Shown here: one piece after another, positions 18,658 through 58,958 of the stretch | How the letters are laid out: every line of letters starts with the position of its first letter | Numbering within the stretch: position 1 is the stretch's first letter | NCBI GenBank assembly: GCA_964482645.1 | Contig: CAYZYQ010000001.1 | Span: 31,271 to 95,270, forward strand | Length of the DNA: 64,000 bases | Source: an uncultured Lentisphaeraceae bacterium | GTDB lineage: Bacteria > Verrucomicrobiota > Kiritimatiellia > RFP12 > UBA1067 | Direction of reading: 5' to 3' | Position numbers and translations under genes: made by a program | The notes under the pieces: generated by a model | Database searches by the model: none | Seen by the model: only the letters and a program-made list of their open reading frames with translations | What the model was told of the DNA's origin: nothing

Positions 18658-18732
18658 TTGTTGTACGGCGTGGTGCGGCGTCACAGTCTGTCAAAAAAAA
18701 AGAATTGTCAAAACGTCTGAAAAGATCCCGCT

Positions 18733-18762
18733 TGACGGACGAGAAAAAAAAATCGTATAATC
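18733..18762 (+). promoter_or_regulatory. sigma70-like promoter candidate for large secreted protein gene
   Basis: TTGACG - 18 nt A-rich spacer (gacgagaaaaaaaaatcg) - TATAAT, about 75 nt upstream of ATG 18840. Confidence 0.4.
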
Positions 18763-28002: not shown

Positions 28003-28081
28003 GACGTTTGGGGGACTCTCAAGGGGAATTGTGGTTGTAAAAAAAAAAGGAGTAAAAGTGTAAACATCTCTCCGTTCGGGT

Positions 28082-28113
28082 TTGACAGAAAGAAAAAAAA
28101 AATGGTTATAATA
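28082..28113 (+). promoter_or_regulatory. strong sigma70-like promoter candidate
   Basis: TTGACA - 18 nt A-rich spacer - TATAAT in AT-rich intergenic region upstream of ATG 28170. Confidence 0.45.
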
Positions 28114-42882: not shown

Positions 42883-42890
42883 ACGCGAGA
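42859..42890. repeat. direct repeat copy 1 (core GGGCGGGCTTCCTGCGGAATCATGAACGCGAG) at recD2 3' end
   Basis: 32-nt core identical to 54352-54383 and with 1 mismatch to 57799-57830; flanks partially similar. Confidence 0.8.
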
Positions 42891-42926
42891 TGTCGATGTC
42901 CCGCGTGTAGTGTGATCCGGAACCAA

Positions 42927-43322
42927 CTATCGCGAACTCAATGACTCCGGTAACCAGATGTCTTCCCAGAAGAACGTCGGAAAGAAGTCGATTGTTTCGC
43001 TTGAATGCGAAACCGAGTTTCCCCAGATGCCGAGCGTGAAGCAGTCGGCAACCCCGTCGACAATGCGCACGGCGCACATGACGGCGCCGGGGACAATGCC
43101 GAAGACGCCTCCCAAAAAAGCGCCTGGCTCGGCGGCGGATTCATATCCCCTGCCGCCATAGTACGATATGTCCCTGACGATTTCGCCAGGACTTGTGACG
43201 ACGTTCACGAGTCCGCGGCCGACGCCGGTGGGCGGCGGCCATCCAAATTCATCCCCGTCCTCGCTGGCGGCAAGGCACGCCAGCGTCGTGCAGGCGCATA
43301 TCAGCATGCAAAGCTTTCTCAT
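42927..43322 (-). CDS. small secreted/lipoprotein, possibly exosortase-associated TIGR04073-like
   Basis: Signal peptide with LAC lipobox; GRGLVNVVTSPGEIVRDI segment resembles the conserved core of TIGR04073-family small proteins; last gene of the operon. Confidence 0.45.
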   Translation of the reverse strand: MRKLCMLICACTTLACLAASEDGDEFGWPPPTGVGRGLVNVVTSPGEIVRDISYYGGRGYESAAEPGAFLGGVFGIVPGAVMCAVRIVDGVADCFTLGIWGNSVSHSSETIDFFPTFFWEDIWLPESLSSR

Positions 43323-43337
43323 CTCATGTTTCTCCTG

Positions 43338-44165
43338 TTAGGCAAACTCGACCCGGGCCTTTCCAAGGCATTTGCCCTCGGTGGTACGAATCAGCGCCGT
43401 CTTGACCTTCGTGACTGTCATGGTGTTGTCCAGGGGGTGGGCGCCTAGGCCGTAAACAATGTGGAGGTCGGAATTGATTGGATCTCCAACGAGATCCCAA
43501 GTCACTTCGCAGCCTGCCGTCCGCCCGTCAAGCAGTTTTTTGAATTGCCGCCGAATGTCTGTCAGTTTCGCCTCGTCGTCGCGGAACAATGTGTAGAGTT
43601 CGACGTCAAACGCCTTGAAGCGGTTGGCGAACGCAATGTTGTTGTTCCTTGCAGAACTGACGGCTCCGATGAAAAGAGACACGATTCTCGTCGCGTCAAG
43701 GTTGCCACCCAGTTCCTTCCATATCGGCAGAACCTCAAGATGCAGGTCTTCGGGGATGAACGACGGCATCGGTTCGTTTTCGATTCTATAGCCCTTTCCT
43801 CGAAGCGCAGCGCATTCTATTGCCGTCTTCTTCAACTCGTTCTCAAGTTCGGCGATGCGCTCCCTGAGCCGATCCGCCTCTGAAGGCCTCGGCGGCTTCG
43901 CGTCGCGCTCTGCGAGTGAATGGTGTGAAATCCACTCCTGCCGGTTCCAGATTGCGCAGAGCTTTTGGAGACCGTCGGGCATGACTGCGCCTGGATGCTC
44001 TGAAAGGGTACGGGCGATGTCGGAGTCGGAGAGTCGCTTGTTGACGAAGCGCACCGCGAAGTCCTTGCCGATTTTTTCTTCAAGGGCGTCGGCGACGACG
44101 CACACCTGCCCGTCGTCGATCAGCCCTGTTTCGACAATGCGTGAAAGTACAGTGGTCAGGTTCAT
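43338..44165 (-). CDS. hypothetical protein (central coiled-coil)
   Basis: 275-aa ORF with lower-GC codon usage consistent with neighbours; 4-nt overlap with upstream gene; no recognisable motif. Confidence 0.5.
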   Translation of the reverse strand: MNLTTVLSRIVETGLIDDGQVCVVADALEEKIGKDFAVRFVNKRLSDSDIARTLSEHPGAVMPDGLQKLCAIWNRQEWISHHSLAERDAKPPRPSEADRLRERIAELENELKKTAIECAALRGKGYRIENEPMPSFIPEDLHLEVLPIWKELGGNLDATRIVSLFIGAVSSARNNNIAFANRFKAFDVELYTLFRDDEAKLTDIRRQFKKLLDGRTAGCEVTWDLVGDPINSDLHIVYGLGAHPLDNTMTVTKVKTALIRTTEGKCLGKARVEFA

Positions 44166-45286
44166 TCCGCATCAACCCCCGCATGAGACAGACATTTCGG
44201 TTCACCGTTTTTCGGCAGGCACATGACATACGCTGAACGGGCGTAGGTGATTCTTCTCGCGTTTTCGTTGCCCTCATGGATTTCCTTGTCGAAGTCATCG
44301 CCTTTTTTCGGCCAGCAAACCGAGATCGTGCAGTCGTCGCGCTTGCCGGCCATTTTGCTGTTCAGGTATCTTTCCACGCGTCTGCGGCATTCCTCCAATG
44401 TGTCTCCGCTGCCCATGGCCTTGGCGAAAGCATTGTCGAATGCCCTGAACCGTTCGACGAAGACATCCCTGTCAAGGGATCCCGTCAGAAGCCACATGAA
44501 GGAGTAGGCGCATTGAAGCCTGCGGCGTGAATCCTCGGAGTCGTCCGCATCCTCCCGATAGCCGAAGAGGTCGCACACATCCTTCGGCATTGCCTTTTCG
44601 ATTTCCAAACGCACTTTTTCAAGTTCGTCCTCGCACCCGGCCCTCACCTGCTCTATTTCCTCATTCTTCTCTTTGAGAGCCGATTCGTACTTCTGCCGAA
44701 TTTCCTCGATTTCGGCCTTATGCTCTGCCTCCATGGCGTTCTTTTCGGCTTCGCAGTTGCCCTGCTCCGTGGAAACTGTCTGCTCCATCGCCACCGCAAT
44801 GTCCATCTTGCGCTTTTCTTCCAGGCGGCATCTTTCATCGTCAAACGCCTTGCGCTCCGCCTCAAGCGTTTTCTTGGCCTCACACGCTTCCTCAAAGTCC
44901 TTCCGCGCCGATTCTTCAAGGCGCCTCTTGTCGCACTTCAACGCTTCGACCTCTTTATTCAGCGCTTCGACCTCTTCATTCAGATCGGCATTCTCCATGC
45001 GGTATCTTATTGTGTCGTCCAGAAGGAGGGAATAGGTCTTTTTATGCCGTTCAAGCTCCGTTTCAAGTTCGCGTTTCTTCTCATCGTTCAGTCTGTCGAC
45101 CTGTTCGTATCGGGCCTTGATTGCGTCCTTGATTGCATTCAGGCTGACGTTCAGGCTGGCGAGAACCTTGTTCGCGACTTTGTCGCATATGTTTTCGATC
45201 AGAATCTCGTCCGAAGAAGGTGGCTGGGAGGCCGTGGATGGAATCTCGGCGGCTTCGCTTTTGCTGGAAGTGTTTTCATCGGTCAT
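44162..45286 (-). CDS. coiled-coil protein, Glu/Lys-rich
   Basis: About 250 aa of heptad-like E/K/L-rich sequence (ELETELERHKK..., LNEEVEALNKEVEALK...) followed by globular Cys-containing C-terminal domain; 20-nt gap to upstream gene. Confidence 0.55.
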   Translation of the reverse strand: MTDENTSSKSEAAEIPSTASQPPSSDEILIENICDKVANKVLASLNVSLNAIKDAIKARYEQVDRLNDEKKRELETELERHKKTYSLLLDDTIRYRMENADLNEEVEALNKEVEALKCDKRRLEESARKDFEEACEAKKTLEAERKAFDDERCRLEEKRKMDIAVAMEQTVSTEQGNCEAEKNAMEAEHKAEIEEIRQKYESALKEKNEEIEQVRAGCEDELEKVRLEIEKAMPKDVCDLFGYREDADDSEDSRRRLQCAYSFMWLLTGSLDRDVFVERFRAFDNAFAKAMGSGDTLEECRRRVERYLNSKMAGKRDDCTISVCWPKKGDDFDKEIHEGNENARRITYARSAYVMCLPKNGEPKCLSHAGVDAE

Positions 45287-45306
45287 GTTCCGTCTCCTCT
45301 TTTTCT

Positions 45307-47691
45307 TCAGGCTATTTCAACGATGCGGTCCATCATGAACTCGCCGTCCATTGTGCAGACGCGGCACTCGACGTCTTCGGGATGCAGTTCCGTGGCGTCG
45401 CCTCTGAACGTGCCGGTTGCGGACACGACTCGCAGGGCGTTGTTCAGCGGATCGCTTTCAAGTCTCACCGAGACTCCGTCGCCGATTCCGCCATGTTTTT
45501 CGAGCGCTTCCGGTTTTATGCGGAGTTCGTACGACAGGATGGCTGTTTTCCCATATGGCGTCTTGCGCGCGAAAAGACGTCGCGGCGACGTCATCGGGAT
45601 GTCCTTCTGCAGTTCCCCGTCTCCGAATATCGGGCGCGTGAACGCGACGTGCTGCCCGTCGGGAACGATGCCCCACTTGAAGTCCGTGTTCACGACGTTG
45701 TTCGTGAACGACAGGTTCACGGATGCTTCGTTGCGCAGCGCATACAGCGCTCCGCCAAGCGCGGTCGAGATCTTCGAGTCGGTGATGCTCTTCGCGCCAT
45801 TGAAGAACTTGCCGCACCAGTCGCTGACGCGGTAGTCCTTCATGCTCCGGATTGCGGACGAGGGCAGGGCGATGCGTCTCTTGAACACGTTCTGCACTGC
45901 GGTGAACTCCATCGTCTTTCCGGAGAGGACGAGCATGTCGACGTCGTACGCGGCAATCAGATTCGCGAAGGAATGCGCGATGCTCCGAAATGTCTTCTCC
46001 GCGGTTGCACGGTAGGCGGAGACAATCTCCTGCGTAATGGCAATCTCGATTTCAAGGTCCTTGACTTTCTCAACGTCATCGATTTTCAGTTTTGCAATGC
46101 GGCACCAATCGGTGGCGTCGTCGTTCGAGAACTTGTGCCGGAAGACAGACAGGTCGTCATCGCGGATGTCGTCATTCGGATATCGCCGCAGAAGTTCGTC
46201 CAGTTTGATGGCGAGCGAAAGGGCAAGGTCGAACCAGAACGTCTTTGTCAGCGATCTGACGTGCGATCGCATTTCCGACGAATGGTAGTTCGCGCGAAGG
46301 TCTGCGTCCTTCGTTCCGAATTCATGCTCCAATTTCTGCGCAACGGCCTTGAACCCTGCCTTGGCAACGCAGTTCTCGATGAACGCGAAGATGAACGCAT
46401 CTCCGGCCGTGTTCACGCCATCGCGGCAGAAGAGGTCTATCGTGGCGCTGTACGGATCGACGCCGGCCGTTTCCTCCGATGCGGACACGGCGGATATCGA
46501 GAGATCGGACGTTCCGCCTCCGACGTCGATGACGGCAATCCTGGCCTCGCGTCCAATCGGAGACCTGCGGCCTATGGACTGGAGCCAGAAGAACGCACTC
46601 GGGTTTCTGCGGATTTCGTTGTAGGCGAAGAGAGAGAGCACGGACGTCGCCTCGTCGATGTCCGAGGTCAGCTCCACTTCCGTCTCGGGAAAATTCCGCA
46701 GATAGGCTCGCAGTCCATTCTGCAGCCGTTCGCGGTACAGTTCCAGCTCGCGCGGCAGAAGCGTGGAAGGATATGTGACGTGAATGCGGGAGATTCTGCG
46801 GCAGCGCGAGTCGCATGATTTTTTCTTGAACTCCGCCGAAGAGACGTAGTAGCACCCCTGTTCGTACAGTTCCGCCAGCATGGCGCCGAGCATGGCGGCG
46901 GGTGGAAGACGGTTCATGTCGATTCCGCAGTCCATTCCAAGTTCTGCCGCGATGATTCCGTTCAGATGTTCCACTTTCGGCTGCTCGGCGTCGACAGGCA
47001 TTCTTGAGGCGACCCATTCGCGTGACGAAGGATCGGCGTCCCAGAAATACCTTTTGGGGCTTGAAAGCGTATAGCGTCCCGCTCCTTCGCGACCTCTGAA
47101 CTGATAGTTGTTCCATTCCGCAAAGCGTCCGAGTCTGACAAACGACAGCCGTCCCTCGTTGTCGCAGAATTCACCGTCGGGGCGTGAATCCGCGTTCGTG
47201 AGCGACACCAGGCTTTTGAACGCGCCCTTCAGGGGACTCTCGCTTTTCCGCTGCTTGCACGCGATCGGCAATTCGTATACCGACGGGGCGCTTTCTCCAA
47301 GACCGTCGACGAGAAGAGCCACCGTGCGCGTGTTGCCAAGATCAATTGAGAGCATGCAGTCGACGACGTTGGACGGCGTCGCGATCTCATAACCCTCCCA
47401 GTCCTCGAAGTCGCCTAACTTTCTCCTGGCGTTTGGGTCTTTGCGGTCGCCGGGACGCGGCAGGGAAGGGCGCGCGTCGACCGTGAGGTACAGTATGTAC
47501 CTGGTCGTTTCCGTATCTCCGCCTACGGGTCTGCTCTTTTCCGTGGATGTCACGTACAGCAGACGATGGGGCACGACCCCTCCGTCCGATTCGGCTGCGA
47601 ACGCGCCCTGTTCCAGATTGTTAAACACGCTTTCCTCTAGATCAAGTTTCAGCGTGCAGACTTCGCCTTTGTAGATTGCAGATAATGCCAT
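45307..47691 (-). CDS. Hsp70/actin-fold ATPase-like protein (about 795 aa)
   Basis: Phosphate-1-like MLSIDLGNTRTVALLVDG and phosphate-2-like IAVIDVGGGTSDLSI motifs in the spacing expected for an Hsp70-type nucleotide-binding domain; start ambiguous (ATG 47691, or 47793/47838 overlapping upstream gene). Confidence 0.65.
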   Translation of the reverse strand: MALSAIYKGEVCTLKLDLEESVFNNLEQGAFAAESDGGVVPHRLLYVTSTEKSRPVGGDTETTRYILYLTVDARPSLPRPGDRKDPNARRKLGDFEDWEGYEIATPSNVVDCMLSIDLGNTRTVALLVDGLGESAPSVYELPIACKQRKSESPLKGAFKSLVSLTNADSRPDGEFCDNEGRLSFVRLGRFAEWNNYQFRGREGAGRYTLSSPKRYFWDADPSSREWVASRMPVDAEQPKVEHLNGIIAAELGMDCGIDMNRLPPAAMLGAMLAELYEQGCYYVSSAEFKKKSCDSRCRRISRIHVTYPSTLLPRELELYRERLQNGLRAYLRNFPETEVELTSDIDEATSVLSLFAYNEIRRNPSAFFWLQSIGRRSPIGREARIAVIDVGGGTSDLSISAVSASEETAGVDPYSATIDLFCRDGVNTAGDAFIFAFIENCVAKAGFKAVAQKLEHEFGTKDADLRANYHSSEMRSHVRSLTKTFWFDLALSLAIKLDELLRRYPNDDIRDDDLSVFRHKFSNDDATDWCRIAKLKIDDVEKVKDLEIEIAITQEIVSAYRATAEKTFRSIAHSFANLIAAYDVDMLVLSGKTMEFTAVQNVFKRRIALPSSAIRSMKDYRVSDWCGKFFNGAKSITDSKISTALGGALYALRNEASVNLSFTNNVVNTDFKWGIVPDGQHVAFTRPIFGDGELQKDIPMTSPRRLFARKTPYGKTAILSYELRIKPEALEKHGGIGDGVSVRLESDPLNNALRVVSATGTFRGDATELHPEDVECRVCTMDGEFMMDRIVEIA

Positions 47692-47716
47692 GAGGGTTTC
47701 CAGAGAATGTCCGTGT

Positions 47717-48193
47717 TTACTTTGAATCGCATTGGAACAGGCTTTCAAGGCGCATTCGCCAGGGCTTTGTCTGTCCCTGCCCAAGGACGGCATTTGCGTC
47801 CTTGATTGAACGGTGCGTATCGTCGGTCGACGTTTCACCGCGCATCACGCGCATGAAGAACCGCGCGAGATGATCGCGGATTTCCTTCTCCGATGCGTTC
47901 CAGTTGCAGAGTTCGTCGCTGAACGTCTGGAACTCATTCGATTCGCCATCGTCGCCGAGACAGCGGTCGCAGCGCTTCCGATAGAACGCCTGCCGTTCGG
48001 AAGACGGCCCGGCGGCCTTGATGAACTCCTTTAGGATTTCCGCAACGGCGTCCGTGTCCACGTACTGGTCTTCCAGGTCAAGGGCGATGAAATGGTCTCC
48101 AACCAGTTCCGTCTCGTCCCATATCAGCCGGAGATACGTCTCTTCCGTGGCTCCGGCCTTTTTTTCCCTCTCGAAATCTTCTCTAAGTCCCAT
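47717..48193 (-). CDS. hypothetical acidic protein
   Basis: 158-aa ORF tightly packed between tubulin-like and Hsp70-like genes; no recognisable motif. Confidence 0.5.
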   Translation of the reverse strand: MGLREDFEREKKAGATEETYLRLIWDETELVGDHFIALDLEDQYVDTDAVAEILKEFIKAAGPSSERQAFYRKRCDRCLGDDGESNEFQTFSDELCNWNASEKEIRDHLARFFMRVMRGETSTDDTHRSIKDANAVLGQGQTKPWRMRLESLFQCDSK

Positions 48194-48206
48194 TTCCCAT
48201 CTCCAA

Positions 48207-51164
48207 TCAGATTCCGTGGATATCCAGCGTGGACGTTATCGTCGCCTTTGCCGTATTGAGCTCCGCGATTTCCGCGTCCGTTATTGAAAAACGGAGGGCG
48301 TTGAAGATGTCTGTTTCGCAATTCAGCACGCTCGTGAACCTCGCCTTTGGATAGAACGATACGAAACCCTTCGGACTGCGGATCCACGCGAGAATCTTTC
48401 CCGTCCAGTCGACGGAAATAAAGTCGAACTGGCACGTGCCATCGAGATTGTCCACCACGCCCAGTTCGTGAAGCCTTGCGCCCGGGAGTCCAAACTTGTC
48501 TCCGTCCTTTGTGAACGTGAACTCGACTTTGGGCTTGTGCAGCAGGACGGTGGCGTCCGGATTCGCGGTGTTTTTCTTGTACGCCTTCCAGGACTCGTTG
48601 AGTCTGCACTCGATCGATTCCATGATGACGCCGAAACGGATCATTTCGGACAGCGTCATGGTCGTTCGCGACGACGGCGCCATGAGACCGGCCCTTATCC
48701 ACGCCTGTTTTACGGCGGGCATGGACGAATAGAGCCTTGAGAGCGTGTCGTGCGCCGTGAAGTCGATGCCGAGAGTCCCCATCCAGAGCCCCTGCACGTG
48801 TATAGGCGTCGCGTCCTTCTTCCTGCCCTTGAACAGCGGCGACGCGGCGGTTTCCTCGTCCTTCCACATGTTCGGGTTCATGATGCCCGATGAATGGTTT
48901 ACGGACAGGAAGGAATCTGCCGAGTTTGCCGTGTTCGGCATGGTCTTCAGACCGAGGACGTCGCAGACGTCGCCATTCGTCATCTTGAAGCCAGGCGGCG
49001 TTCCGCCCTGCTTGATTACGTAGTGGTAGTGGAACGTCTGGGAGTCCGGCGCCGCGAATTCCGGCGCATTCGTCCTGCAGCCGATTGAGTTCTTTGCCAC
49101 GGAGAAGTCCTGAAGCGTTGCACCCGAAAGAGGGTTGGCGCCCGGCTCCAGCTGGTCTGCAAGTTCGATGAACTTGTTGAAGACGCTTTCCTCCGCAAGC
49201 TCCAGGATGGCGTCCGCCGTATGGTCGTAATTGAGGAGTAGTTCGGCGGAGTCGTCGCGTGCGTTCATGTCCTTCACGGTCTGCACGTTCAGTCTCTTGT
49301 CGTTGACGCACTTGCGGTACACGATCGACATCACGATGCGGAATGGATCGAATGCGAGCTGTTTGCGCTTCTCGTCCGGGAGCGGGGCAAGCGGTTCCAC
49401 GAGAAGACCGTCTATGATGTGCGGATTCGTTCCGCCGCGCAGCTCCTTGCACTGTCTGTGCAGTTTCGCCTTCAGTTCGTCGCACTCTTTCCTGAAGTCG
49501 GAGAGTTCGCGCGAAAAGGCGCCTGTGTCGATGAACGACGTGCGCGCGCAGCGGCAGGCGCAGATGTAGAAGCCGAGCAGTTCGCGGAAGCGCTTGTCAA
49601 ACGCATCCACCACTTCCCTGAAGACTTCGTCCTCTTTCGAGAGGCCGAACACCCAGTCGCGTACGACGCGATTCTGCTTCCGCGTCGAGGCCAGCGCGAT
49701 CGCATTGTCCAGCGACTTGACCATCTCGGCCGCATACTGGGAGACGTTTGCCTTAAGCCCCTGGATCTTGTCATGAAGTTCTTTGTATCCCTGGGCGATG
49801 AGTTCCACGTTGACGTCGCCGTTCCAGTCTGCATACTTCGAACAGGCGAGGAGGAGCATGAGTTCCTTGGCGGGGACGACCCTGTACTCCGGAACGCCGT
49901 CTTTCACCGCGTCAAGCAGTTGCCTGAAGGAGTTCCTGAATTCTCCAAGGGACCTCTCGTTGATGGCGCCGCGTTCTTCCGCCTGGAGCAGCGCTTTCAG
50001 CGGAATGCACTGCGCGGGATCGACGCCGGCAAGGGCTTTCCTGTATTCGGGCAGCTGGGCGTCGATGAACACGCTTTTGACGTTCTCCAGGATTGCGGGG
50101 GCAGCTCCGCTTCCGTTCAGAAATCCCGTCCGCCCGTCCTTGCCGTCAAGGACGGCGATGAGGCTCTTGTAGAACCAGTTCTTCAGCGAGACCATCCGTC
50201 CGCTTTTCATCACGAACATGTTGAATGCGGAAAAACACGGATCCTCCTTGTCCACGTGGTACGCGGGGCCTGACTGCCCCGCGATCAGCCTGTCCACCCA
50301 GCGCGGATGGAATTCCTCCACGTGGAGGTACGTGGCGGCGAAGAGCTGTTCGGCCAGGAGCGACGTCACAAGCGGCCGGCGTCCATGCGGCGTGGGAAGC
50401 ACGTAGAGGTTGCCCATGGGCAGGGATGAACCCGAAATGCCGCGGTCTGCAAGCACGTGTCCGTCGGGCTTCGCGCCGGTGAACAGCGGAAACGCTTGGT
50501 CTTCCTTCTGCACCCACACGGGGACTTTGAAGCCGGGGCGTTCCGATTCCAGCCGTCGCCGCCAGCTTGCCGTCTGGAGGTCCTTGAACATCGAGATCAT
50601 GTTCAGCGCGATTGGATAGTTGCCCTCTCCGGGAATCGCCTCCGGCATCAGGAGAAAGCCCAGCACCACCACGTTCTTGAAGTCGGGGTTTGCGTTTCTC
50701 TTCCGCAGAATCTGCAGGTCGAGGAAATCGCATATGTTCAGGAACAGGCCTCCGGACGTTCCACCGAACGCAGAGCCCACCACGACGATCTGGTCGTCCG
50801 GTTCTAGCGGGAATTCGTTCTCGATTTCAGCCCAGGTCTTTCTGATGAACTCGGCCGCCTTGCCGGAGACAGAACGGTCGCCGCCGACACCGCCCGCAGG
50901 AACGGTCTTGGCCGTCCATGACGGCTGGAAGCTCTTTTCCACGTCTCCGTCGTCGTCCGATATCTTCAGCACGTAGCCCTTCACGCGCGACGTGTGCAGG
51001 CGCGTCCCAAGGGCGTTGAAGGCGTCGATCTCCGACGGCATCGAGTCGATCGCCACGTAGCGGTCGTCGAACCTTCCAAACAGATTCTCCTCGCACAGGC
51101 GTTTGATGAGCGCCATTACGCCTTTCAACGACTCGCTTCCGGATGCAATGAAAATTCTCTTCAT
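48207..51164 (-). CDS. tubulin/FtsZ-like GTPase domain protein with about 700-aa helical C-terminal extension
   Basis: N-terminus RIFIASGSESLKGVMALIKRL...VAIDSMPSEIDAF resembles the FtsZ/tubulin N-terminal strand-loop-helix and DxxAL; VVVGSAFGGTSGGLFLNICDFL resembles the T4 GGGTGSG loop; 985 aa. Confidence 0.6.
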   Translation of the reverse strand: MKRIFIASGSESLKGVMALIKRLCEENLFGRFDDRYVAIDSMPSEIDAFNALGTRLHTSRVKGYVLKISDDDGDVEKSFQPSWTAKTVPAGGVGGDRSVSGKAAEFIRKTWAEIENEFPLEPDDQIVVVGSAFGGTSGGLFLNICDFLDLQILRKRNANPDFKNVVVLGFLLMPEAIPGEGNYPIALNMISMFKDLQTASWRRRLESERPGFKVPVWVQKEDQAFPLFTGAKPDGHVLADRGISGSSLPMGNLYVLPTPHGRRPLVTSLLAEQLFAATYLHVEEFHPRWVDRLIAGQSGPAYHVDKEDPCFSAFNMFVMKSGRMVSLKNWFYKSLIAVLDGKDGRTGFLNGSGAAPAILENVKSVFIDAQLPEYRKALAGVDPAQCIPLKALLQAEERGAINERSLGEFRNSFRQLLDAVKDGVPEYRVVPAKELMLLLACSKYADWNGDVNVELIAQGYKELHDKIQGLKANVSQYAAEMVKSLDNAIALASTRKQNRVVRDWVFGLSKEDEVFREVVDAFDKRFRELLGFYICACRCARTSFIDTGAFSRELSDFRKECDELKAKLHRQCKELRGGTNPHIIDGLLVEPLAPLPDEKRKQLAFDPFRIVMSIVYRKCVNDKRLNVQTVKDMNARDDSAELLLNYDHTADAILELAEESVFNKFIELADQLEPGANPLSGATLQDFSVAKNSIGCRTNAPEFAAPDSQTFHYHYVIKQGGTPPGFKMTNGDVCDVLGLKTMPNTANSADSFLSVNHSSGIMNPNMWKDEETAASPLFKGRKKDATPIHVQGLWMGTLGIDFTAHDTLSRLYSSMPAVKQAWIRAGLMAPSSRTTMTLSEMIRFGVIMESIECRLNESWKAYKKNTANPDATVLLHKPKVEFTFTKDGDKFGLPGARLHELGVVDNLDGTCQFDFISVDWTGKILAWIRSPKGFVSFYPKARFTSVLNCETDIFNALRFSITDAEIAELNTAKATITSTLDIHGI

Positions 51165-51189
51165 GGTGTTTCCTTTCTGCGTCTGCGCC

Positions 51190-51783
51190 CTACAGTCTTG
51201 TCGTCTGCCGCTTCATCTTGAAGCCCGGCCAGAAGAACCATGCCAGCACGACCATGTCCAGAAGTGTCGGAATGATTGGGTGTATGTAGCCGTAGTGCCT
51301 GTAGAAGAATGCGGTCGTCCTGTACGCCGGCCGCTTGCTTGCGTCGGCGTGGTCTTTCGCGTCGCCCTTGTTCTGCGCGGCGCGACTGTTCTGGCACTTC
51401 TCGCTGATGGCCTTGATGTTCCAGAAGTCGTTCTTCGCGTTCGCGTCATATCCCGGCATCGACGCCCTGTAGTCCGTCGCGAACGACGTGATCCCGCTTA
51501 TTTCGGTCACCAGCACGGAGTGCGCGACGAAATAGATGCACGCCATGGCGACGAGGCTGGCCCAGAAGCACTTGCACCATGCCTCCCCGGCCGTGCGCCA
51601 GGCGCCTTTTGCCTCTTGATTGAATCGGTTTCGGAAAAAGCGCACAAGGCCGAAGACCAGGCCGACGGGAAGGGCGATGAAGAAAAAGGCGTCCCAGGCG
51701 AGAAGCGCCAGGCTCGTCGGCAGAAGGCTTTTCAGCATCGTCAGCCATCCTTCGACGGACAGCGAATTCAGAGTTTCGATCAT
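51190..51783 (-). CDS. integral membrane protein (about 4 TM)
   Basis: Hydrophobic helices LLPTSLALLAWDAFFFIALPVGLVFGLV, CFWASLVAMACIYFVAHSVLV, IIPTLLDMVVLAWFFW; 14-nt gap to neighbours. Confidence 0.55.
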   Translation of the reverse strand: MIETLNSLSVEGWLTMLKSLLPTSLALLAWDAFFFIALPVGLVFGLVRFFRNRFNQEAKGAWRTAGEAWCKCFWASLVAMACIYFVAHSVLVTEISGITSFATDYRASMPGYDANAKNDFWNIKAISEKCQNSRAAQNKGDAKDHADASKRPAYRTTAFFYRHYGYIHPIIPTLLDMVVLAWFFWPGFKMKRQTTRL

Positions 51784-51797
51784 TTCCGTTCTCCTTG

Positions 51798-54176
51798 TTA
51801 GACTGCCCGTCGGAACTCGATTTGTCCGACAGGCTCCATTGCCACTTTGTTTTCAAACAGCAGGTAGATCCCCTCGTCGAAGACGACCGTGTTCTCCCCG
51901 ACGGTCTTCTTGTCCGTGCCTGCAATGGGCATCAGTTGGACGTCCTTGCCGGGGGCGCGCAGTTCAAATTCGACCGCCTCCGTCTCCCCCTTGCGGCAGA
52001 TGACGACGAGGTCGACCGGACAGCCGCATTTCCCGTCCAGTCGCACGGCGCGGTTGAGCCTGACGTCAAGCACGACTTGCGTATCGGACTCCTTGTTTGA
52101 ACGGTAGAGGATCTGCGCGGCAGTTCTGCCGCGAACGAGCTTGGCGACAACCACGCCCGTACCTGCGACAAGAGCCGGCAGCAGCACGAACGGAAGAACG
52201 TTGCCTCCGCCATTCGGCGTTCCGCCTTCGACCGGGATGGGCACTCGCTTCCACTCTTCGAGTTCGGCCTTGGCCGTTGCCAGCTCGTTGTCGTTTACGG
52301 CCGCCTCCACTTTTTTCCGTAGCGATTCAAGTTCGGCGCGGTTCTGGATGACGTCGTCGCCATTTGCCGAATTGTCCAGGCGCCAGACTCGCCTGTTCAG
52401 GAGTTCATCTTTCTTTCCTTGAAGTGCGGCCTCCTTGACGCGCCGTTTTTCTTCATCGTCCTTAAACTTTTCGGCCTCTTGATCGGCTTCGACCTGTTTA
52501 GGTGTCTTTGTGGCTGACTTCGTGGCGGGTTTCCATACATTGAATGCGTTCACCGCCTCGTCGAGGGAATCTTTGTCTTTTGCGGCTTTTATCCTCTGCA
52601 GAATCGTAGAGAGGTCTTCGTGATTGAAGATTTGATCCTCGGAATATACGGCCAGTTGTCTCTCCACAATACTAATGGCATTCGTACGCAATTCTTCAAA
52701 CCTGCGGCGGGCTATTTCCGCCTCTATCTCCTTGTTCCTCCGCGCCATGCTTTCCTCCAGTGTAGAAAGGCGTCCCGCCAGTTTTTCAAGCTCGGAGATG
52801 AACAAGGCGATGTCCTTCGTCGACAGCCTTGGGTCGTTGTCGATGAAGCCCGTGCACTTTGCAAGTTGATTGGAGATGTCGTTACAGTCGGAAGCAAAGG
52901 CGCTTCTGTCGCTCGCCGGCATTTTGGAAAGGCGTTCTACGGTGGAGTGCACTTTGATGGCGATGCCCTTCTTCTTTTCCTTGAGTTCGCGCAGGCATTC
53001 AAGGCGCGTGTTCTCTTCGGTCACGGATGCGACGAGTTCTGCGATGGAATCCAGTTTTACCTTGATATACGGCTTGTCAGGTGCAGCGGCAAGGTCGGCG
53101 AGCTGTTTCACGGCGTCGCCTTTCTGCCCTTCCTTCCGCGCCTTTGCGAGGGCGTTTGTGACATCGGAGAAGAGACGTTCTCTGTCGCGAAGACATCCGT
53201 AGTCGAACAGACTCGAATCCCATGTGCGCGTATACGTGATTCCGGCGGGCGAGACAATTGACGCCACCAGTTCATTCTGTCCGAGAACGGGCGTCAGGTT
53301 CGTCGAGTCTTCGTCAAGCGAAATAGACTGCCCATTGTGCCTTATGGTCGTCGTCCATGTTTCCCTTCTTGGCAGTCGGCTTGTTCGCCTTACGGCGATA
53401 TGCGTGTCTTCTGGATTGCAGACAAGCGCCTCCAGACCGGCTTTCTCCGTTTCCGAAAGCGCGTAGTAATGGTCGACGATGGCGTTGGCGACGTCGTTGG
53501 CGTTCGTGTCCAGGGCGACGCGAAGGAAATCTCGCCATTTTTCATGCGACCAGTATGGCTTGAAGATGCCCGCGTTCACTGATTCTGCTGGCGCGTGAAG
53601 CATGAAAAACATGATGTCGTGTTCTTCGTCGAGATGAAACGCGCCATGTCGCGTAGTCAGGTCCGGGTCGTTGGAAATGATGCAGACGACGACATTTCGG
53701 GCAGATTTTTCGTTGTCGAGCACCTGCTTCACGAGGATGTCCCGTCCCCACTCCTCGTCCTCTTTCCCGAATGCGCCGAAATCGGAACGGCTGGCTTTCC
53801 TTGAAAGCGAAAATGGCATGACGATGCCGGGTTTCAGCAGATATGCCGTCCCCGTGTTCACTTCGACGTAGTTTCCGAAGCCGCGCCGGCGCAGCCCTGC
53901 TTCAATCGGATTGTCACGATCGGCCAGAAGCGACCGCAATGCGTTGATGGCACGGACATAGGCGTGGGACGTTCCGTAGTCCATGTTCGCGTCCTTGTTG
54001 CGCTTGTGTCCGTCCACGTAGAAATGCACACTGACATCCCGTCGCCCGTCCAGCGACATGTTTCTCTCTATGGGCGGTACCGCCATGTCGTTCAATGCGG
54101 CCGCGCAAGTCCATGCCGCAAGCAAAATCGCGACTATGCCATATGATTTAAACATAAATTCTCTTCCTTCGCACAA
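51798..54176 (-). CDS. secreted/membrane-anchored protein: signal peptide, about 300-aa ectodomain (possible degenerate vWA), long coiled-coil, single TM, about 110-aa C-terminal domain
   Basis: Signal peptide MFKSYGIVAILLAAWTCAAA; ectodomain with DVSVHFYVDG...NVVVCIISNDPDL; about 250 aa Lys/Glu-rich coiled-coil; TM VLPFVLLPALVAGTGVVVAKLV; first gene of operon. Confidence 0.6.
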   Translation of the reverse strand: MCEGREFMFKSYGIVAILLAAWTCAAALNDMAVPPIERNMSLDGRRDVSVHFYVDGHKRNKDANMDYGTSHAYVRAINALRSLLADRDNPIEAGLRRRGFGNYVEVNTGTAYLLKPGIVMPFSLSRKASRSDFGAFGKEDEEWGRDILVKQVLDNEKSARNVVVCIISNDPDLTTRHGAFHLDEEHDIMFFMLHAPAESVNAGIFKPYWSHEKWRDFLRVALDTNANDVANAIVDHYYALSETEKAGLEALVCNPEDTHIAVRRTSRLPRRETWTTTIRHNGQSISLDEDSTNLTPVLGQNELVASIVSPAGITYTRTWDSSLFDYGCLRDRERLFSDVTNALAKARKEGQKGDAVKQLADLAAAPDKPYIKVKLDSIAELVASVTEENTRLECLRELKEKKKGIAIKVHSTVERLSKMPASDRSAFASDCNDISNQLAKCTGFIDNDPRLSTKDIALFISELEKLAGRLSTLEESMARRNKEIEAEIARRRFEELRTNAISIVERQLAVYSEDQIFNHEDLSTILQRIKAAKDKDSLDEAVNAFNVWKPATKSATKTPKQVEADQEAEKFKDDEEKRRVKEAALQGKKDELLNRRVWRLDNSANGDDVIQNRAELESLRKKVEAAVNDNELATAKAELEEWKRVPIPVEGGTPNGGGNVLPFVLLPALVAGTGVVVAKLVRGRTAAQILYRSNKESDTQVVLDVRLNRAVRLDGKCGCPVDLVVICRKGETEAVEFELRAPGKDVQLMPIAGTDKKTVGENTVVFDEGIYLLFENKVAMEPVGQIEFRRAV

Positions 54177-54212
54177 GATGTCGTTGAATGAAAACGCGCA
54201 TATTTTACAATA

Positions 54213-54231
54213 CCCCCCCCCCCCCCCCCCC
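54213..54231. repeat. homopolymeric C19 (G19 on coding strand) tract 37-55 nt upstream of operon start codon
   Basis: 19 consecutive C residues read directly; sits between island operon start (54176) and repeat copy 2. Confidence 0.9.
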
Positions 54232-54338
54232 TGTCAACTGCAAGTTTTGGAATTGTCATTTGTCAGAGTGAATGTACCTATGGCAGTCGCATCTATTCTG
54301 GCAAGCGACCTACAAATGTACGTGTAAAGGCGTTGTGC

Positions 54339-54383
54339 ACTCACGCCACGGGGCGGGCTTCCTGCGGAATCATGAACGCGAGG
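54339..54383. repeat. direct repeat copy 2
   Basis: CACTCACGCCACGGGGCGGGCTTCCTGCGGAATCATGAACGCGAG; 41/41 identical to 57786-57826. Confidence 0.85.
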
Positions 54384-54418
54384 TGACGGGCGACGAATTG
54401 ACTGCGACGAGCTTTTGG

Positions 54419-55684
54419 TTACGCTTTCGTTGAGAACAACTTGTCCAGCTGCCCTCTGACGTCGAGGCCGCCTTCGCTCTTGTACACCGTGGCGTAGAGG
54501 CACGAACCGCCTGACTTCGCCGCCCAGAGGCGGCCGATGGCGTCCTTTTCCAGCGTGTCCCTGGCGTTGCGCAACTGTTCGCCCTTGTATTCGACCGCGA
54601 AGAGGCGTCCGTCGTCAAGGACGCCCACGAAGTCCGGGAAGAACCGCGTGTGCGCCAGCGGCAGCCAGAACGACTCGTCGCACGTGTCGAGATTGCGCAG
54701 CCACGTCCTGACTTTCGGATGGGCGTCAATCAGCTTTGCGCACTCGAACTCTTCGCCCTCGCCGTATTTCAGCTGCCCGTCGAACGCCGGGATGCGGTGC
54801 GTTCCAAGAAAGTGCTTGTTGAAGCGGTAGTTGCCACGGTAAACCTCAAGCATCGTCTGATTGCGATAGAGCGCGTCGTCCAACGCAAAAGCCTTGTCCA
54901 CGTTCAGTTCAACACGATGGACGCTGTCGAAGAACACCGCTTGATAGGCCTTCTTCCGGACGATTCTCGCGGCCTCGGCAATATGGCCGTCGAGACAGTT
55001 TCGCAGTTTGTAGCGGAAGCAGTAGAGCTGTGCCGGCGTGAATCCCCTGGCCGTCACAAGATGATTGACGACCCCGGCGATCCAGCCGCGCATCACCTCC
55101 GGCGGAATCGCATTGTGCCGCGTCAGGGCGGCGAGTTCATTGACCACGTCTCCCGGCGCAAGATCCGTCTTGACCTCTTGCAGGAACGTCATCTGTTCGT
55201 GCGCGAACTGCTGTTTGATTTCATTTCCGTTCAGTTCGAGAACAAACGTTTCGCCCTGTTCCCTTATCTCGAATTCGCCGTCCGGCAGCACGGCGTGGTT
55301 CGCCTCCAGTTCCCTGCCCAGATCCTCGCCCGCCAGTTCCTCCGCCTCTTCGCCGTCGAAGCAGAGTTCGCCCTGGACGTCTGCGCAGAGTTTTGGAAAC
55401 GTCATCTTGACGGAGTTCGCGGGAACGGCCTCGACGGCCTCTGACTTCTTCTCTGCGACCTTCTTCAGGAATTGGGCGGCGAGTGCGGTCTGGCCGTTTT
55501 CATGCAGGAGGTTCGCGATTTTGGATGCGGATGCCTCGGAGATGTCCGCCCTTACCGCAATCGTCCCCGAACCGTCGGCGTTCGCTGTCACCTCGACGTC
55601 TTCGGGCATTTCGGCGGCAATGGCCTCGTACACTGGAGTTTTGGAGTTCGGGAGACGCGAGGGTGTTCCGCAATTCTCCCCCAA
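54419..55684 (-). CDS. PD-(D/E)xK restriction-endonuclease-like domain protein (possibly truncated)
   Basis: C-terminal FFPDFVGVLDDGRLFAVEYKGEQL shows D...E-x-K nuclease core similar to type III restriction Res C-terminal domains; no helicase motifs in N-terminal half. Confidence 0.5.
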   Translation of the reverse strand: MGENCGTPSRLPNSKTPVYEAIAAEMPEDVEVTANADGSGTIAVRADISEASASKIANLLHENGQTALAAQFLKKVAEKKSEAVEAVPANSVKMTFPKLCADVQGELCFDGEEAEELAGEDLGRELEANHAVLPDGEFEIREQGETFVLELNGNEIKQQFAHEQMTFLQEVKTDLAPGDVVNELAALTRHNAIPPEVMRGWIAGVVNHLVTARGFTPAQLYCFRYKLRNCLDGHIAEAARIVRKKAYQAVFFDSVHRVELNVDKAFALDDALYRNQTMLEVYRGNYRFNKHFLGTHRIPAFDGQLKYGEGEEFECAKLIDAHPKVRTWLRNLDTCDESFWLPLAHTRFFPDFVGVLDDGRLFAVEYKGEQLRNARDTLEKDAIGRLWAAKSGGSCLYATVYKSEGGLDVRGQLDKLFSTKA

Positions 55685-55931
55685 GCCTCCGAAACTCCAC
55701 GCGGCGAAAGCAACACCTCCCCTACGGCATCTGCTCGCCGGCGATTTCTTCGAGGGTGTGTATCGGACGCGCTCCGCGTTCCCGCAGCCGAATTTTCACT
55801 TGGCGCAAAGCGAAAACAGCGACGTCGCCCTTTGTTTACAGGGGTTCGGCGATTCTCTTGCCCGAAAAATTGGGGAATCTCCAAAGGTGATGATAGTACG
55901 CTGCACCAGTCACTCCCATAATATTGCCGAA

Positions 55932-56591
55932 TTACAAAAGCTCCCAAGTGAAAATAACGGAGTCAGAAACGTCAAGGTCGTCAGGATTGATGTCTGGTAC
56001 AGAACAAGCAGACGCCTCTTGCCAACAACCCAGAACTTCAATTCTAGTCCTTCTATACACATTTAACTCATGCCACGAATAGTTAATGTTTATAATGTCG
56101 CCAAGCTTCTTGCCAACACCACGACTGAGTCCTTCGGCAATCTTACGGGCGTTCTCGGAGGCCTTAGCGAACAATTCAGCTTGTACAAACGAAGCGTCTT
56201 TCACCGTAAATCGAACTTCAAACTCAGGATTGACACCGGACTTTACAATGCCCCCCAGAATTGCACCTATCATTTCGCGGCTGAAATCAAAACCAAACTT
56301 GAGTTTTTGGTGAATCTTGTATCCAGCAAACACACGCTTCTTTGTGCGTTCACCATTCGCATCATCAATCCACTCCCATTCAGTATCGACATCAAAATCC
56401 GTGGTTCGCAAATCCTCGGCATCGACATTGACTTCTTTCAATGCATTTTGCAGAAATTGAATCTTGTGTGCCGCATCGGACATACAATTCGAATAATCAT
56501 GGCCGCGTGTCACTATGTCGATAAGAATATTGACATAATCCGGCTTTACTTTCACATTTGCCGCACTGCGGACAGTTATTTCTTTTCTCAT
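55932..56591 (-). CDS. SIMPL (DUF541) domain protein
   Basis: N-terminus MRKEITVRSAANVKVKPDYVNILIDIVTRG matches the SIMPL-domain start; low-GC codon usage unlike host. Confidence 0.55.
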   Translation of the reverse strand: MRKEITVRSAANVKVKPDYVNILIDIVTRGHDYSNCMSDAAHKIQFLQNALKEVNVDAEDLRTTDFDVDTEWEWIDDANGERTKKRVFAGYKIHQKLKFGFDFSREMIGAILGGIVKSGVNPEFEVRFTVKDASFVQAELFAKASENARKIAEGLSRGVGKKLGDIININYSWHELNVYRRTRIEVLGCWQEASACSVPDINPDDLDVSDSVIFTWELL

Positions 56592-57785
56592 TGCCTCTAC
56601 TCCTTTTTTAGTTAAACAATGTCACTACCATGCAATAGTGATGGTGTGATGTGAGTAAAAAAGTCGTTGCCTTCAGGTCGCTTTCCCGTGTACCATACAC
56701 GGTGTCATGAAAGAACCCTGAAAGCAACGACGAAGAGAATGATACCAATTCTGGCGCAGATAGTCCAACATACTTGCCAGGATACAAAATCGAGGAACTC
56801 GCGGCCGAAGAGAAAATCAAGGCCAGGGAGTTTTCCTGCTCCGCGCAGGTGTACCTGTTGATGCTCGGCCAGCTTGCGCATGTCTTCTCTTTGAATGAAC
56901 TCGTCGACCCCTCGACGATATTCTCCGGGGAGCTCCGCCACATACGCGGCATCGAGGCCGTGAAGCTCACGACGTTCTCCCACGCCAACAGGACGCGGGC
57001 GAATGGCAGATATGGGCGGCGATGCTGACGCATCTTGTCCTGTACTACATCAAATGGAAGAACAAGGTGGTTTCCTCGTATACGCGGTTCGCGGCGATGA
57101 TCAAGAACACCATCTGGTTGAAGCGCCCTCTTGAGGCGGGGATCAATTTATATTGCAGAACACCTGGCCAAAGCAGCCCTCCGCCAGACCGCAGCATGCC
57201 GTATTTGCCGGGGTTTGAGCGGCTTGCCATTGGATAGCACCCGGCGACAATTGCAACGACAACGGCGTCTATCGCATGACATAAACACACTCACATTGAA
57301 AATCGCCTTGCGAAACTGTCGCTTTGGGCCGAAAAACCACCTAATACGCTATCCGTTCGCATAGTTTTGGAACCCTGTTGTATGGTATTGGAGATGCGAG
57401 GTCGTTCCACAATTCCCTCGAACTCCGGGACTCCAGAACTTCCGCAACGAAAGCAACAAACTTCCGCGCCCGCATGATGCAACCCGGCGCGACAGGGACG
57501 TCGCGCCCTACTGGATGGGCAGACGCCCCGCCATGCGGTAGCCGAACAGACGTTCCGCCATTCGGCAGGGCGTGCAGATGTTTCGCCATTCGGTAGGGCG
57601 GGGCGTCCCGCCCCGCCGTTGACGTGCGCGACGGGGAACTTGCCGACGATGCGGCCGGCCTTGACGAAGAATCTTCAGCTCATGGTCGTCGCGCTGGAAT
57701 GTTTCGTCCGCAAAAAAAAAGGGGATCCTCCAAAACATGTGCATCTTCCCAAAGCCAATGCGCCCGAAATCCGGAATAGCTGTAC

Positions 57786-57830
57786 ACTCACGCCACGGGG
57801 CGGGCTTCCTGCGGAATCATGAACGCAAGG
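57786..57830. repeat. direct repeat copy 3 (forms the 3' end of antiporter gene)
   Basis: CACTCACGCCACGGGGCGGGCTTCCTGCGGAATCATGAACGCAAG. Confidence 0.85.
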
Positions 57831-58807
57831 TAGGCGAGGAAGAGAAGAATCCAGAGGGCGCCTTCCAGACGGTTGATCGTACCGTCCTTCTTGGGATTGC
57901 GGAAGTTGAGGCCGAAGACGGCGATGAGAATCGAGAAGAACGTCATGACGGGCAAGTCGCGCGTCAGGATGTAGCCGGAAAATCCGCTGAACGGCGAAAT
58001 CGATCCGGCAACGCCCACGACGACGAGCGCGTTGAAGAAGTTCGAGCCGACGATGTTGCCGACGACGAACTCGTTTTCGCCTCTCCGTGCCGAGGCGATT
58101 GACGACGCCAGTTCCGGCAGGGACGTGCCGGCCGCCACGATGGTCAGGCCGATGAGGAGTTCGCTCACGTGCAGAACGTCGCGCGCGAAGTCCACGCATC
58201 CCCACACCATGACGTGGGACGAAAGGACGAGGATTGCCAACCCGAGAACGAGGCGCGTCCATTCGCGAATGCCGCTGAACGGCACGGTAGGCGTTGGCGC
58301 GGCGACGGGTTCGGCTGCGGTGAGGGGCTTAGCCTCCCGTTGGTCGTACCAGCAGTAGATGGGCATCAGAACCGCGAACGCCACAAGCAGGCCAAGGGCG
58401 TTGAAACGGTCGAACGAGCCGTCTCGCACGGCCCACCAGGAAAGGACGGACGTGATGAGCAACAGGGGGACGGCAAACCAGTTGACCGACGACTTCACCT
58501 TGATGGGCCAGAAGAGGGCCGTCACGCCGAGGATGATGCCGATGTTGAAAATGTTGCTGCCGTAGGCATTGCCCAGCGACAAGTCGGCATGGCCGCTCGC
58601 GCTTGCAATGGCCGAGACGGCCATTTCTGGCGCACTCGTGCCGAAGCCGATGATGACCATGCCGACAATGAGCGGCGAAAGGCCGAAATGACGAGCAAGG
58701 ACGCTGGCCGCGTCCACGAACACGTCCGCACTCTTTGCGAGGACGAAAAGACCACCGATGATGAAGATGAGTGACAGGATGAGGGGGATGTCTGTACTGA
58801 TACTCAT
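57788..58807 (-). CDS. Ca2+/Na+ antiporter (CaCA/YrbG family)
   Basis: Duplicated alpha-repeat motifs GTSAPEMAVS and GTSLPELASS; about 10 TM; AAGGAG RBS before ATG 58807. Confidence 0.85.
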   Translation of the reverse strand: MSISTDIPLILSLIFIIGGLFVLAKSADVFVDAASVLARHFGLSPLIVGMVIIGFGTSAPEMAVSAIASASGHADLSLGNAYGSNIFNIGIILGVTALFWPIKVKSSVNWFAVPLLLITSVLSWWAVRDGSFDRFNALGLLVAFAVLMPIYCWYDQREAKPLTAAEPVAAPTPTVPFSGIREWTRLVLGLAILVLSSHVMVWGCVDFARDVLHVSELLIGLTIVAAGTSLPELASSIASARRGENEFVVGNIVGSNFFNALVVVGVAGSISPFSGFSGYILTRDLPVMTFFSILIAVFGLNFRNPKKDGTINRLEGALWILLFLAYLAFMIPQEARPVA

Positions 58808-58870
58808 GTTTGTACCTTCTCCTTCGTTTGGTTTTCTTGTGAAAGGGGCGGCTCGTCCGAATGACAAGCT

Positions 58871-58958
58871 TGGCGGAGAGAGAGGGATTCGAACCCCCGA
58901 AGCCTTGCGGCTCGCCGGTTTTCAAGACCGGTGCATTCAACCACTCTGCCATCTCTCC
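58871..58958 (-). tRNA. tRNA-Ser (anticodon TGA)
   Basis: Reverse complement GGAGAGATGGCAGAGTGGTTGAATGCACCGGTCTTGAAAACCGGCGAGCCGCAAGGCTTCGGGGGTTCGAATCCCTCTCTCTCCGCCA folds as cloverleaf: 7-bp acceptor, anticodon loop CTTGAAA, long variable arm, TTCGAAT T-loop, encoded CCA. Confidence 0.85.

Follow-up and report, generated by a model that had tools for sequence, protein, structure and literature searches.

The question raised by this locus is whether a long homopolymer lying ahead of an operon in an uncultured gut bacterium acts as a switch for the expression of that operon or is an inert repeat. In the window, which is the whole 64-kb stretch of DNA analysed here, 19 consecutive C residues occupy positions 54213 to 54231 of the plus strand (G19 on the coding strand), exactly as recorded in the first-pass annotation, which had also regarded such a tract as very unexpected by chance. 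This was borne out: the number of runs of 19 nt or longer expected from the base composition of the window is 1.8e-5, and the longest other C or G run in the window is 6 nt. The tract far exceeds chance expectation, and G/C runs of 9 nt or longer are also rare in related genomes, with only two found in 326 kb of sequence from 80 related Kiritimatiellia loci. The sole other G/C run of more than 9 nt in those loci is a G13 directly following a T9 in the MAG UBA6354 (L053:687-708), which is intergenic and lies upstream of gyrB.

The sequence surrounding the tract has the layout of a promoter. Read on the minus strand, the order is AAACTTGCAG-TTGACA-G19-TATTGTAAAATATG...AAGGAAG-N7-ATG. The hexamer TTGACA (54232 to 54237, minus strand), a perfect match to the -35 consensus, adjoins one end of the tract and is preceded by the block AAACTTGCAG (54238 to 54247), recognized as conserved by alignment. 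The hexamer TATTGT (54207 to 54212), a candidate -10 element, adjoins the other end. As the hexamers adjoin the tract on both ends, the tract constitutes the whole promoter spacer of 19 nt, so that the proposed placement between -35 and -10 elements held with exact boundaries. A second candidate -10 element, TAAAAT (54202 to 54207), overlaps TATTGT but is shifted downstream by 5 nt, giving a spacer equal to the tract length plus 5, i.e. 24 nt in the window.

The distance from the tract to the first gene had to be corrected. It had been given as 37–55 nt, measured to an in-frame TTG at 54176, whereas the real start of gene 1 is almost certainly the ATG at 54155, based on the ribosome-binding site AAGGAAG (54163 to 54169), the gene callers in independent assemblies and the alignment of orthologue N-termini. 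The tract is 58–76 nt upstream of this ATG, with the ribosome-binding site and start codon approximately 45 nt downstream of the promoter hexamers.

The GyrB protein encoded in the window shares 99 % identity with that of an uncultured gut MAG, and its relatives carry the labels Kiritimatiellae or Kiritimatiellia. Use of sigma-70-like promoters in this genome was assessed in the first 40 kb of the window, where sigma-70-like sites occurred approximately threefold above dinucleotide shuffles (10 versus 3.3 and 9 versus 3.3). The best of these sites lie just upstream of long ORFs, and the strong ones have spacers of 16–19 nt. This enrichment and placement indicate that a -35/-10 model is reasonable for this genome. 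Two other promoter types, sigma-54 (TGGCAC-N5-TTGC) and Bacteroidetes-type (TAnnTTTG), were checked by eye and rejected as not fitting, since the TTGCA here has no GG 10–11 nt upstream of it. No Rfam match was found across positions 42500 to 58500.

To determine the conservation of this arrangement, exact or near-exact copies and orthologues of gene 1 were recovered from independent metagenome assemblies, giving 31 assemblies including the window. A G tract was present between the same two hexamers in all 31. Both hexamers were invariant in all orthologues, and the second -10 candidate was present as TAAAAT or TAAGAT in all of them. In the nine promoters that were aligned, AAACTyGCAGTTGACA and TATTGTAArAT were invariant down to 55 % identity of the gene-1 protein. 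The DNA farther upstream was unrelated between lineages, with homology to the window beginning only 10–25 nt upstream of the -35 hexamer, and the TTGACA-Gn-TATTGT module was the sole conserved non-coding block in the intergenic region upstream of the operon. In two lineages, P0009 and P0006 (those with 55 and 91 % protein identity), the upstream neighbour is divergently oriented, which means that the operon needs its own promoter there. There were no gene-1 relatives among the GTDB species representatives, no matches to the promoter module in a DNA-pattern scan of JGI metagenomes or in viral contigs, no confirmed relatives in a protein scan of JGI metagenomes and no gene-1 match in plasmids by tblastn.

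The length of the tract was highly variable, as would be predicted for a slippage-prone repeat and as the first-pass annotation had suggested might be found at orthologous loci. The overall range among the 31 assemblies was 10 to at least 26 nt. The near-identical lineage comprised 14 assemblies, ten of them with spanned alleles, namely G19 (twice), G22, G15TG5, G14TG5 (three times), G13TG5 (twice) and G10TG5. These correspond to spacers of 16, 19, 20, 21 and 22 nt, although differences of a single nucleotide within the range G19–21 could be Illumina or PCR stutter and only the larger differences are robust; one further contig begins with 26 G, a lower bound. In the T-interrupted alleles, the long run varied (10, 13, 14 or 15) and the G5 was constant. 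Diverged orthologues with 91, 86, 56 and 55 % protein identity carried G10, GGGAG14, G11, and G13–14 plus A or GGGAG10 plus A, respectively, for tract lengths of 10, 11, 14, 15 and 18 nt. Within the 55 % lineage, tract length hardly varied, a point against the switch: 12 of 13 spanned assemblies had 15 nt and one had 14, although these assemblies come from two related run series.

The variation in the tract stands out against its flanks. One copy (L001) shows no mismatch to the window in 8,358 nt, the single gap being the tract itself (G22 versus G19), and in three other copies (L002–L004) the tract is the sole indel in approximately 5.5 kb relative to the window. The best-supported reading of these alignments is that the tract would gain and lose length far faster than its flanks mutate. 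In addition, six of the 31 contigs start inside the tract (L005, L006, L102, L108, L112 and L113). We infer that these breaks reflect branching of the de Bruijn graph at reads of more than one tract length, to which stutter could contribute. The tract breaks short-read assemblies, and a length found in a single assembly is not to be regarded as fixed.

The genes downstream of the putative promoter form an operon of seven tightly packed minus-strand genes (43338 to 54155), separated by gaps of -4 to approximately 25 nt. Gene 1 (51798 to 54155, 785 aa) had no match in Pfam, NCBIfam or PADLOC and belongs to a very rare family: 1.84 billion proteins yielded 13 representatives at E<=1e-30. The protein has a signal or anchor segment at its N terminus, a beta-sandwich at its C terminus and, besides these, a conserved alpha/beta domain, a long coiled coil and a single transmembrane helix. 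A Foldseek search with the AlphaFold model of gene 1 (pLDDT 76) returned nothing significant, with faint matches to vWA folds (best E=3e-3) and FHA-like folds, and sequence searches of the PDB returned coiled-coil noise only. Gene 2 (51190 to 51783, 197 aa) encodes a membrane protein with three hydrophobic segments. Gene 3 (48207 to 51164, 985 aa) has a weak Tubulin_2 (FtsZl1-type) match of 23.4 bits, below the Pfam cut-off of 27. Gene 4 (47717 to 48193, 158 aa) has no family match. Gene 5 (45307 to 47691, likely start ATG 47691) is a member of the SrfB family (PF07520, E=5.3e-39, 134 bits). Gene 6 (44162 to 45286, 374 aa) encodes a coiled-coil protein and gene 7 (43338 to 44165, 275 aa) is the last of the operon. 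Neither SrfA nor SrfC was detectable, and no other operon protein had a Pfam or NCBIfam match.

The operon occupies an 11.4-kb island between 58-nt direct repeats at 42838 to 42895 and 54331 to 54388. The first, at the distal border, is att-like and overlaps the 3′ end of a convergent recD2 gene; the second, likewise att-like, forms the proximal border 94 nt upstream of the -35 hexamer. A third copy (57778 to 57835) is the true 3′ end of a Na/Ca-exchanger gene (57788 to 58867, minus strand) and bounds a second cassette of 3.4 kb. Read on the minus strand, each of the three copies encodes the C-terminal exchanger tail, LAFMIPQEARPVA and stop. The island looks like a tandem site-specific insertion with att-like duplication, and no integrase was seen with the two tandem cassettes. 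Assemblies made at k=31 break at the second repeat copy, and the repeats account for the many k=31 contigs that have a length of approximately 11.5 kb and begin 213 nt upstream of the ATG.

Several other features were observed in and around the second cassette. It holds a minus-strand gene (54419 to 55684) for a protein of 404–421 aa that corresponds to the C-terminal half (505–895 of 898) of a PADLOC Type III restriction enzyme model (E=9e-38), without the helicase half and with no methylase nearby, and a SIMPL/DUF541 gene (55932 to 56591). An A9 run (57712 to 57720) is located near the third repeat copy at the 3′ end of the exchanger gene, and a tRNA-Ser(TGA) gene (58871 to 58958, minus strand) is located immediately upstream of the exchanger gene.

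The G19 tract probably serves as the spacer in a promoter of sigma-70 type, and its slippage probably phase-varies the seven-gene island operon. TTGACA-Gn-TATTGT would act as the promoter driving the operon, and slipped-strand mispairing at replication would cause the tract to gain or lose G residues. Each change in length would alter how far apart the -35 and -10 hexamers lie and also their helical phasing. Transcription of the entire operon could then vary between cells of a single population in a heritable yet reversible way, in either an on/off or a graded manner. The locus is therefore best described as a well-supported candidate phase-variable promoter, as judged from genome sequence.

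The state predicted for each allele depends on the spacing rule that is applied. Under the E. coli optimum of 17 +/- 1 nt, which may not be that of the Kiritimatiellota, the 19-nt spacer of the window would be weak or off. Most of the observed lengths (10, 11, 14, 15, 19–22 and at least 26) are outside the range of 16–18 for TATTGT and none is exactly 17. Another strong-looking promoter in the window has a 19-nt spacer, which suggests that a partly active G19 state is possible.

A different form of poly-G tract was found in distant homologues of gene 1. Two loci at 42–45 % identity (L104 and L109) have no promoter tract but canonical promoters (TTGnnn-17/18-TGnTATAAT, of the TTGCTA-18-TGGTATAAT type). 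Instead, G9 (L104:3020-3028) and G11 (L109:170-180) are present at nt 20–31 of the gene-1 homologue coding sequence, each seen on one contig. Directly after the tract comes TAAGTAAG, which places a stop codon in each of the two wrong frames. Both observed lengths keep the reading frame; every +/-1 or +/-2 variant would terminate by codon 9–12, and gaining or losing a single G would end translation within one to three codons. The intragenic tract was absent from the close relative P0012 and from more distant family members, and N-terminal poly-Gly footprints, checked in all family representatives as a stand-in for intragenic tracts, were confined to the P0013/P0014 clade. In L104, the operon is immediately preceded by a gene (L104:190-2880) whose 896-aa product has Sel1 repeats and faintly matches Double-GTPase 1 (PF19975); this gene is missing from the window version.

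The operon family accordingly carries candidate poly-G switches at two levels, transcriptional in one clade and translational in another, and their occurrence in the same rare operon family argues for selected stochastic expression rather than a neutral repeat. A broader proposal is that this is a contingency locus in which poly-G switches evolved independently in the promoter spacer and in the 5′ coding region, with the promoter version possibly being multi-state; we regard this only as a tentative extension, and one that may well not hold. Given that the tract is the entire spacer and that two overlapping -10 hexamers (TATTGT and TAAAAT) lie 5 nt apart, there could be two 'on' windows at approximately 11–13 G and 16–18 G, with different transcription starts. 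Tract lengths of 10–11 give spacers of 15–16 with TAAAAT, which hints, speculatively, at two such alternative -10 elements and 'on' windows. Two windows would explain why lineages are found at 10–11, 14–15 or 16–22 G.

Four alternatives to the promoter-spacer switch were considered, all of which are less well supported. In the first, the tract would be a neutral passenger, hypermutable through slippage and located near the edge of a mobile island, with the operon expressed from another promoter or by read-through. Most consensus lengths are indeed far from a 17-nt spacer, the module lies within approximately 25 nt of the start of inter-lineage homology, and in the window lineage a search for a terminator separating the promoter from the co-oriented gene upstream of it found none (z = +0.98), so read-through could contribute there. 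However, a neutral homopolymer should decay, yet at least 10 G have been kept in 31 of 31 assemblies and down to 55 % identity, and the adjoining hexamers are invariant next to neighbouring DNA that is unrelated. Read-through is impossible in the two lineages with a divergent upstream gene, and the distant homologues, with their additional poly-G inside the coding sequence, point to switching being under selection. A passenger role is thus unlikely.

Secondly, the tract could have a length-independent role, either by folding of the non-template strand into a G-quadruplex or another unusual DNA structure, or as a regulator site, in which case the length changes would be incidental. In principle, a three-tetrad quadruplex can form from runs of at least 15 G, and classic promoter tracts are far shorter than the present one. 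The G10 and G11 orthologues cannot form such a structure and yet keep the module, A or T interruptions are tolerated, and nothing in the data calls for a mechanism of this kind, making it quite improbable.

Thirdly, the conserved TATTGTA reads as TACAATA on the other strand and could serve as the -10 element of a divergent promoter with its start inside the C run, leading to reiterative transcription or to a shared bidirectional switch as in Haemophilus influenzae hifA/hifB. A plus-strand site of suitable form, TTGAAT-16-TACAAT (54184 to 54211), ends one base before the C run, and the upstream neighbour is divergently oriented in two lineages. This site is probably due to chance: it scores 9/12, with 0.4 such sites expected by chance in this 700-nt region, and its -35 is not conserved in the alignment of other lineages. 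As the window lineage also has no plus-strand gene to drive, we attach very little weight to a divergent promoter. Finally, a sequencing or assembly artefact such as a contig join, raised as a concern in the first-pass annotation, is excluded: although six contigs begin inside the tract and Illumina sequencing is error-prone at long homopolymers, the tract is present in 31 of 31 assemblies from several independent run series and both assembler types (k=141 ENA contigs and Logan contigs), recurs in diverged orthologues, is spanned with unique flanks on both sides in 25 of 31 assemblies and is internal to a 159-kb NCBI contig that also encodes the gene-1 protein.

Work on phase variation by simple repeats has dealt almost entirely with a small number of cultured pathogens. 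The present locus offers a clean and comparatively well-supported candidate from an uncultured Kiritimatiellia gut commensal (PVC group), obtained from metagenome assemblies alone. The genes that would be controlled belong to a rare, uncharacterised island operon with SrfB-like, possible FtsZ-like and membrane proteins. The intragenic poly-G in distant relatives points to strong selection for stochastic expression, which in turn may point to a surface-exposed, phage-targeted or costly function. Were the multi-state contingency reading true, it would imply that a rare membrane machine containing SrfB is under strong fluctuating selection, perhaps because phages or host immunity target it or because it is a costly defence, and would provide the first functional handle on SrfB-type operons outside the Proteobacteria.

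The gene content of the operon can be compared to two known systems. SrfABC is an SsrB-regulated operon in Salmonella, with cytotoxicity reported in Xenorhabdus (PMC6950479), and the literature found on SrfB function was limited to work in these two genera. Gene 5 is clearly of the SrfB family, but unlike SrfABC the operon has no detectable SrfA or SrfC. In the vWA-FtsZl1 membrane-remodelling systems (PMC2875224), the corresponding components would be genes 1 and 3; here the Tubulin_2 match of gene 3 is below threshold, and gene 1 is a signal-peptide or transmembrane protein whose vWA-fold matches are not significant. The seven-gene architecture with two membrane proteins matches neither system.

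The putative switch itself has closer counterparts. The fim2 and fim3 genes of Bordetella pertussis have a poly-C tract of approximately 13–15 nt in the promoter region that alters spacing and results in phase variation. The present locus is similar in having a long C/G homopolymer in the promoter region, but the fim tract separates the BvgA activator site from the -10 element, whereas here there is a canonical -35 hexamer and no activator is known. In Mycoplasma hyorhinis vlp and H. influenzae hifA/hifB, poly-A or TA repeats in the -35/-10 spacer switch transcription by slippage. The hif switch is covered by reference 18 of PMC5084427, as cited there. The vlp and hif systems differ from the present locus in repeat type and in their targets, which are surface lipoproteins or fimbriae, and hif is bidirectional.

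The vlp layout is resembled by two other promoters in the window, which have A9 or A10 in their spacers. One (18693 to 18761) is a near-consensus promoter, TTGACG-gacgag-A9-tcg-TATAAT, with a spacer of 18 nt containing A9 at 18744 to 18752 and a second A9 (18693 to 18701) approximately 51 nt upstream of it. It precedes a large secreted protein (ATG 18840, 1,102 aa) with no Pfam match. The other (28039 to 28112), TTGACA-gaaag-A10-tggt-TATAAT, has a spacer of 19 nt and a second A10 approximately 54 nt upstream, and precedes a PATR-repeat (PF12951) surface protein (ATG 28170). These two-tract promoters may represent a second class of slippage-prone spacers in this genome.

Intragenic poly-G contingency loci are established in Campylobacter, Neisseria and Haemophilus. 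They have also been predicted in Akkermansia muciniphila (PMC3048395). The L104 and L109 homologues match this layout, with G9 or G11 in the first 31 nt and stops in both alternative frames, while the window clade differs in having the switch, as predicted here, in the promoter. To our knowledge, no operon family has been reported in which one clade uses the first mode and another clade the second.

For the promoter tract, the nearest parallel is porA of Neisseria meningitidis, where the tract is approximately 9–11 G and is embedded in other spacer bases, and where its length determines the -35/-10 spacing and with it the level of transcription. Variable spacing between its -10 and -35 elements has been described (van der Ende 1995, as cited in PMC5084427). 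As in porA, a poly-G homopolymer longer than the approximately 8 nt needed for slipped-strand mispairing is located between conserved -35 and -10 hexamers of sigma-70 type and is polymorphic between near-identical strains, with the link to expression being a prediction in the present case. Unlike porA, the tract here is the whole spacer, ranges from 10 to at least 26 nt, precedes an operon of seven genes instead of one porin gene and is found in an uncultured gut member of the Kiritimatiellia rather than a proteobacterial pathogen. The locus would thus be a candidate for a known mechanism, slippage within a promoter spacer, operating in a new phylum and on a new operon, and it is distinctive in its all-tract spacer, its unusual length and the convergent, putative intragenic switch in its distant relatives.
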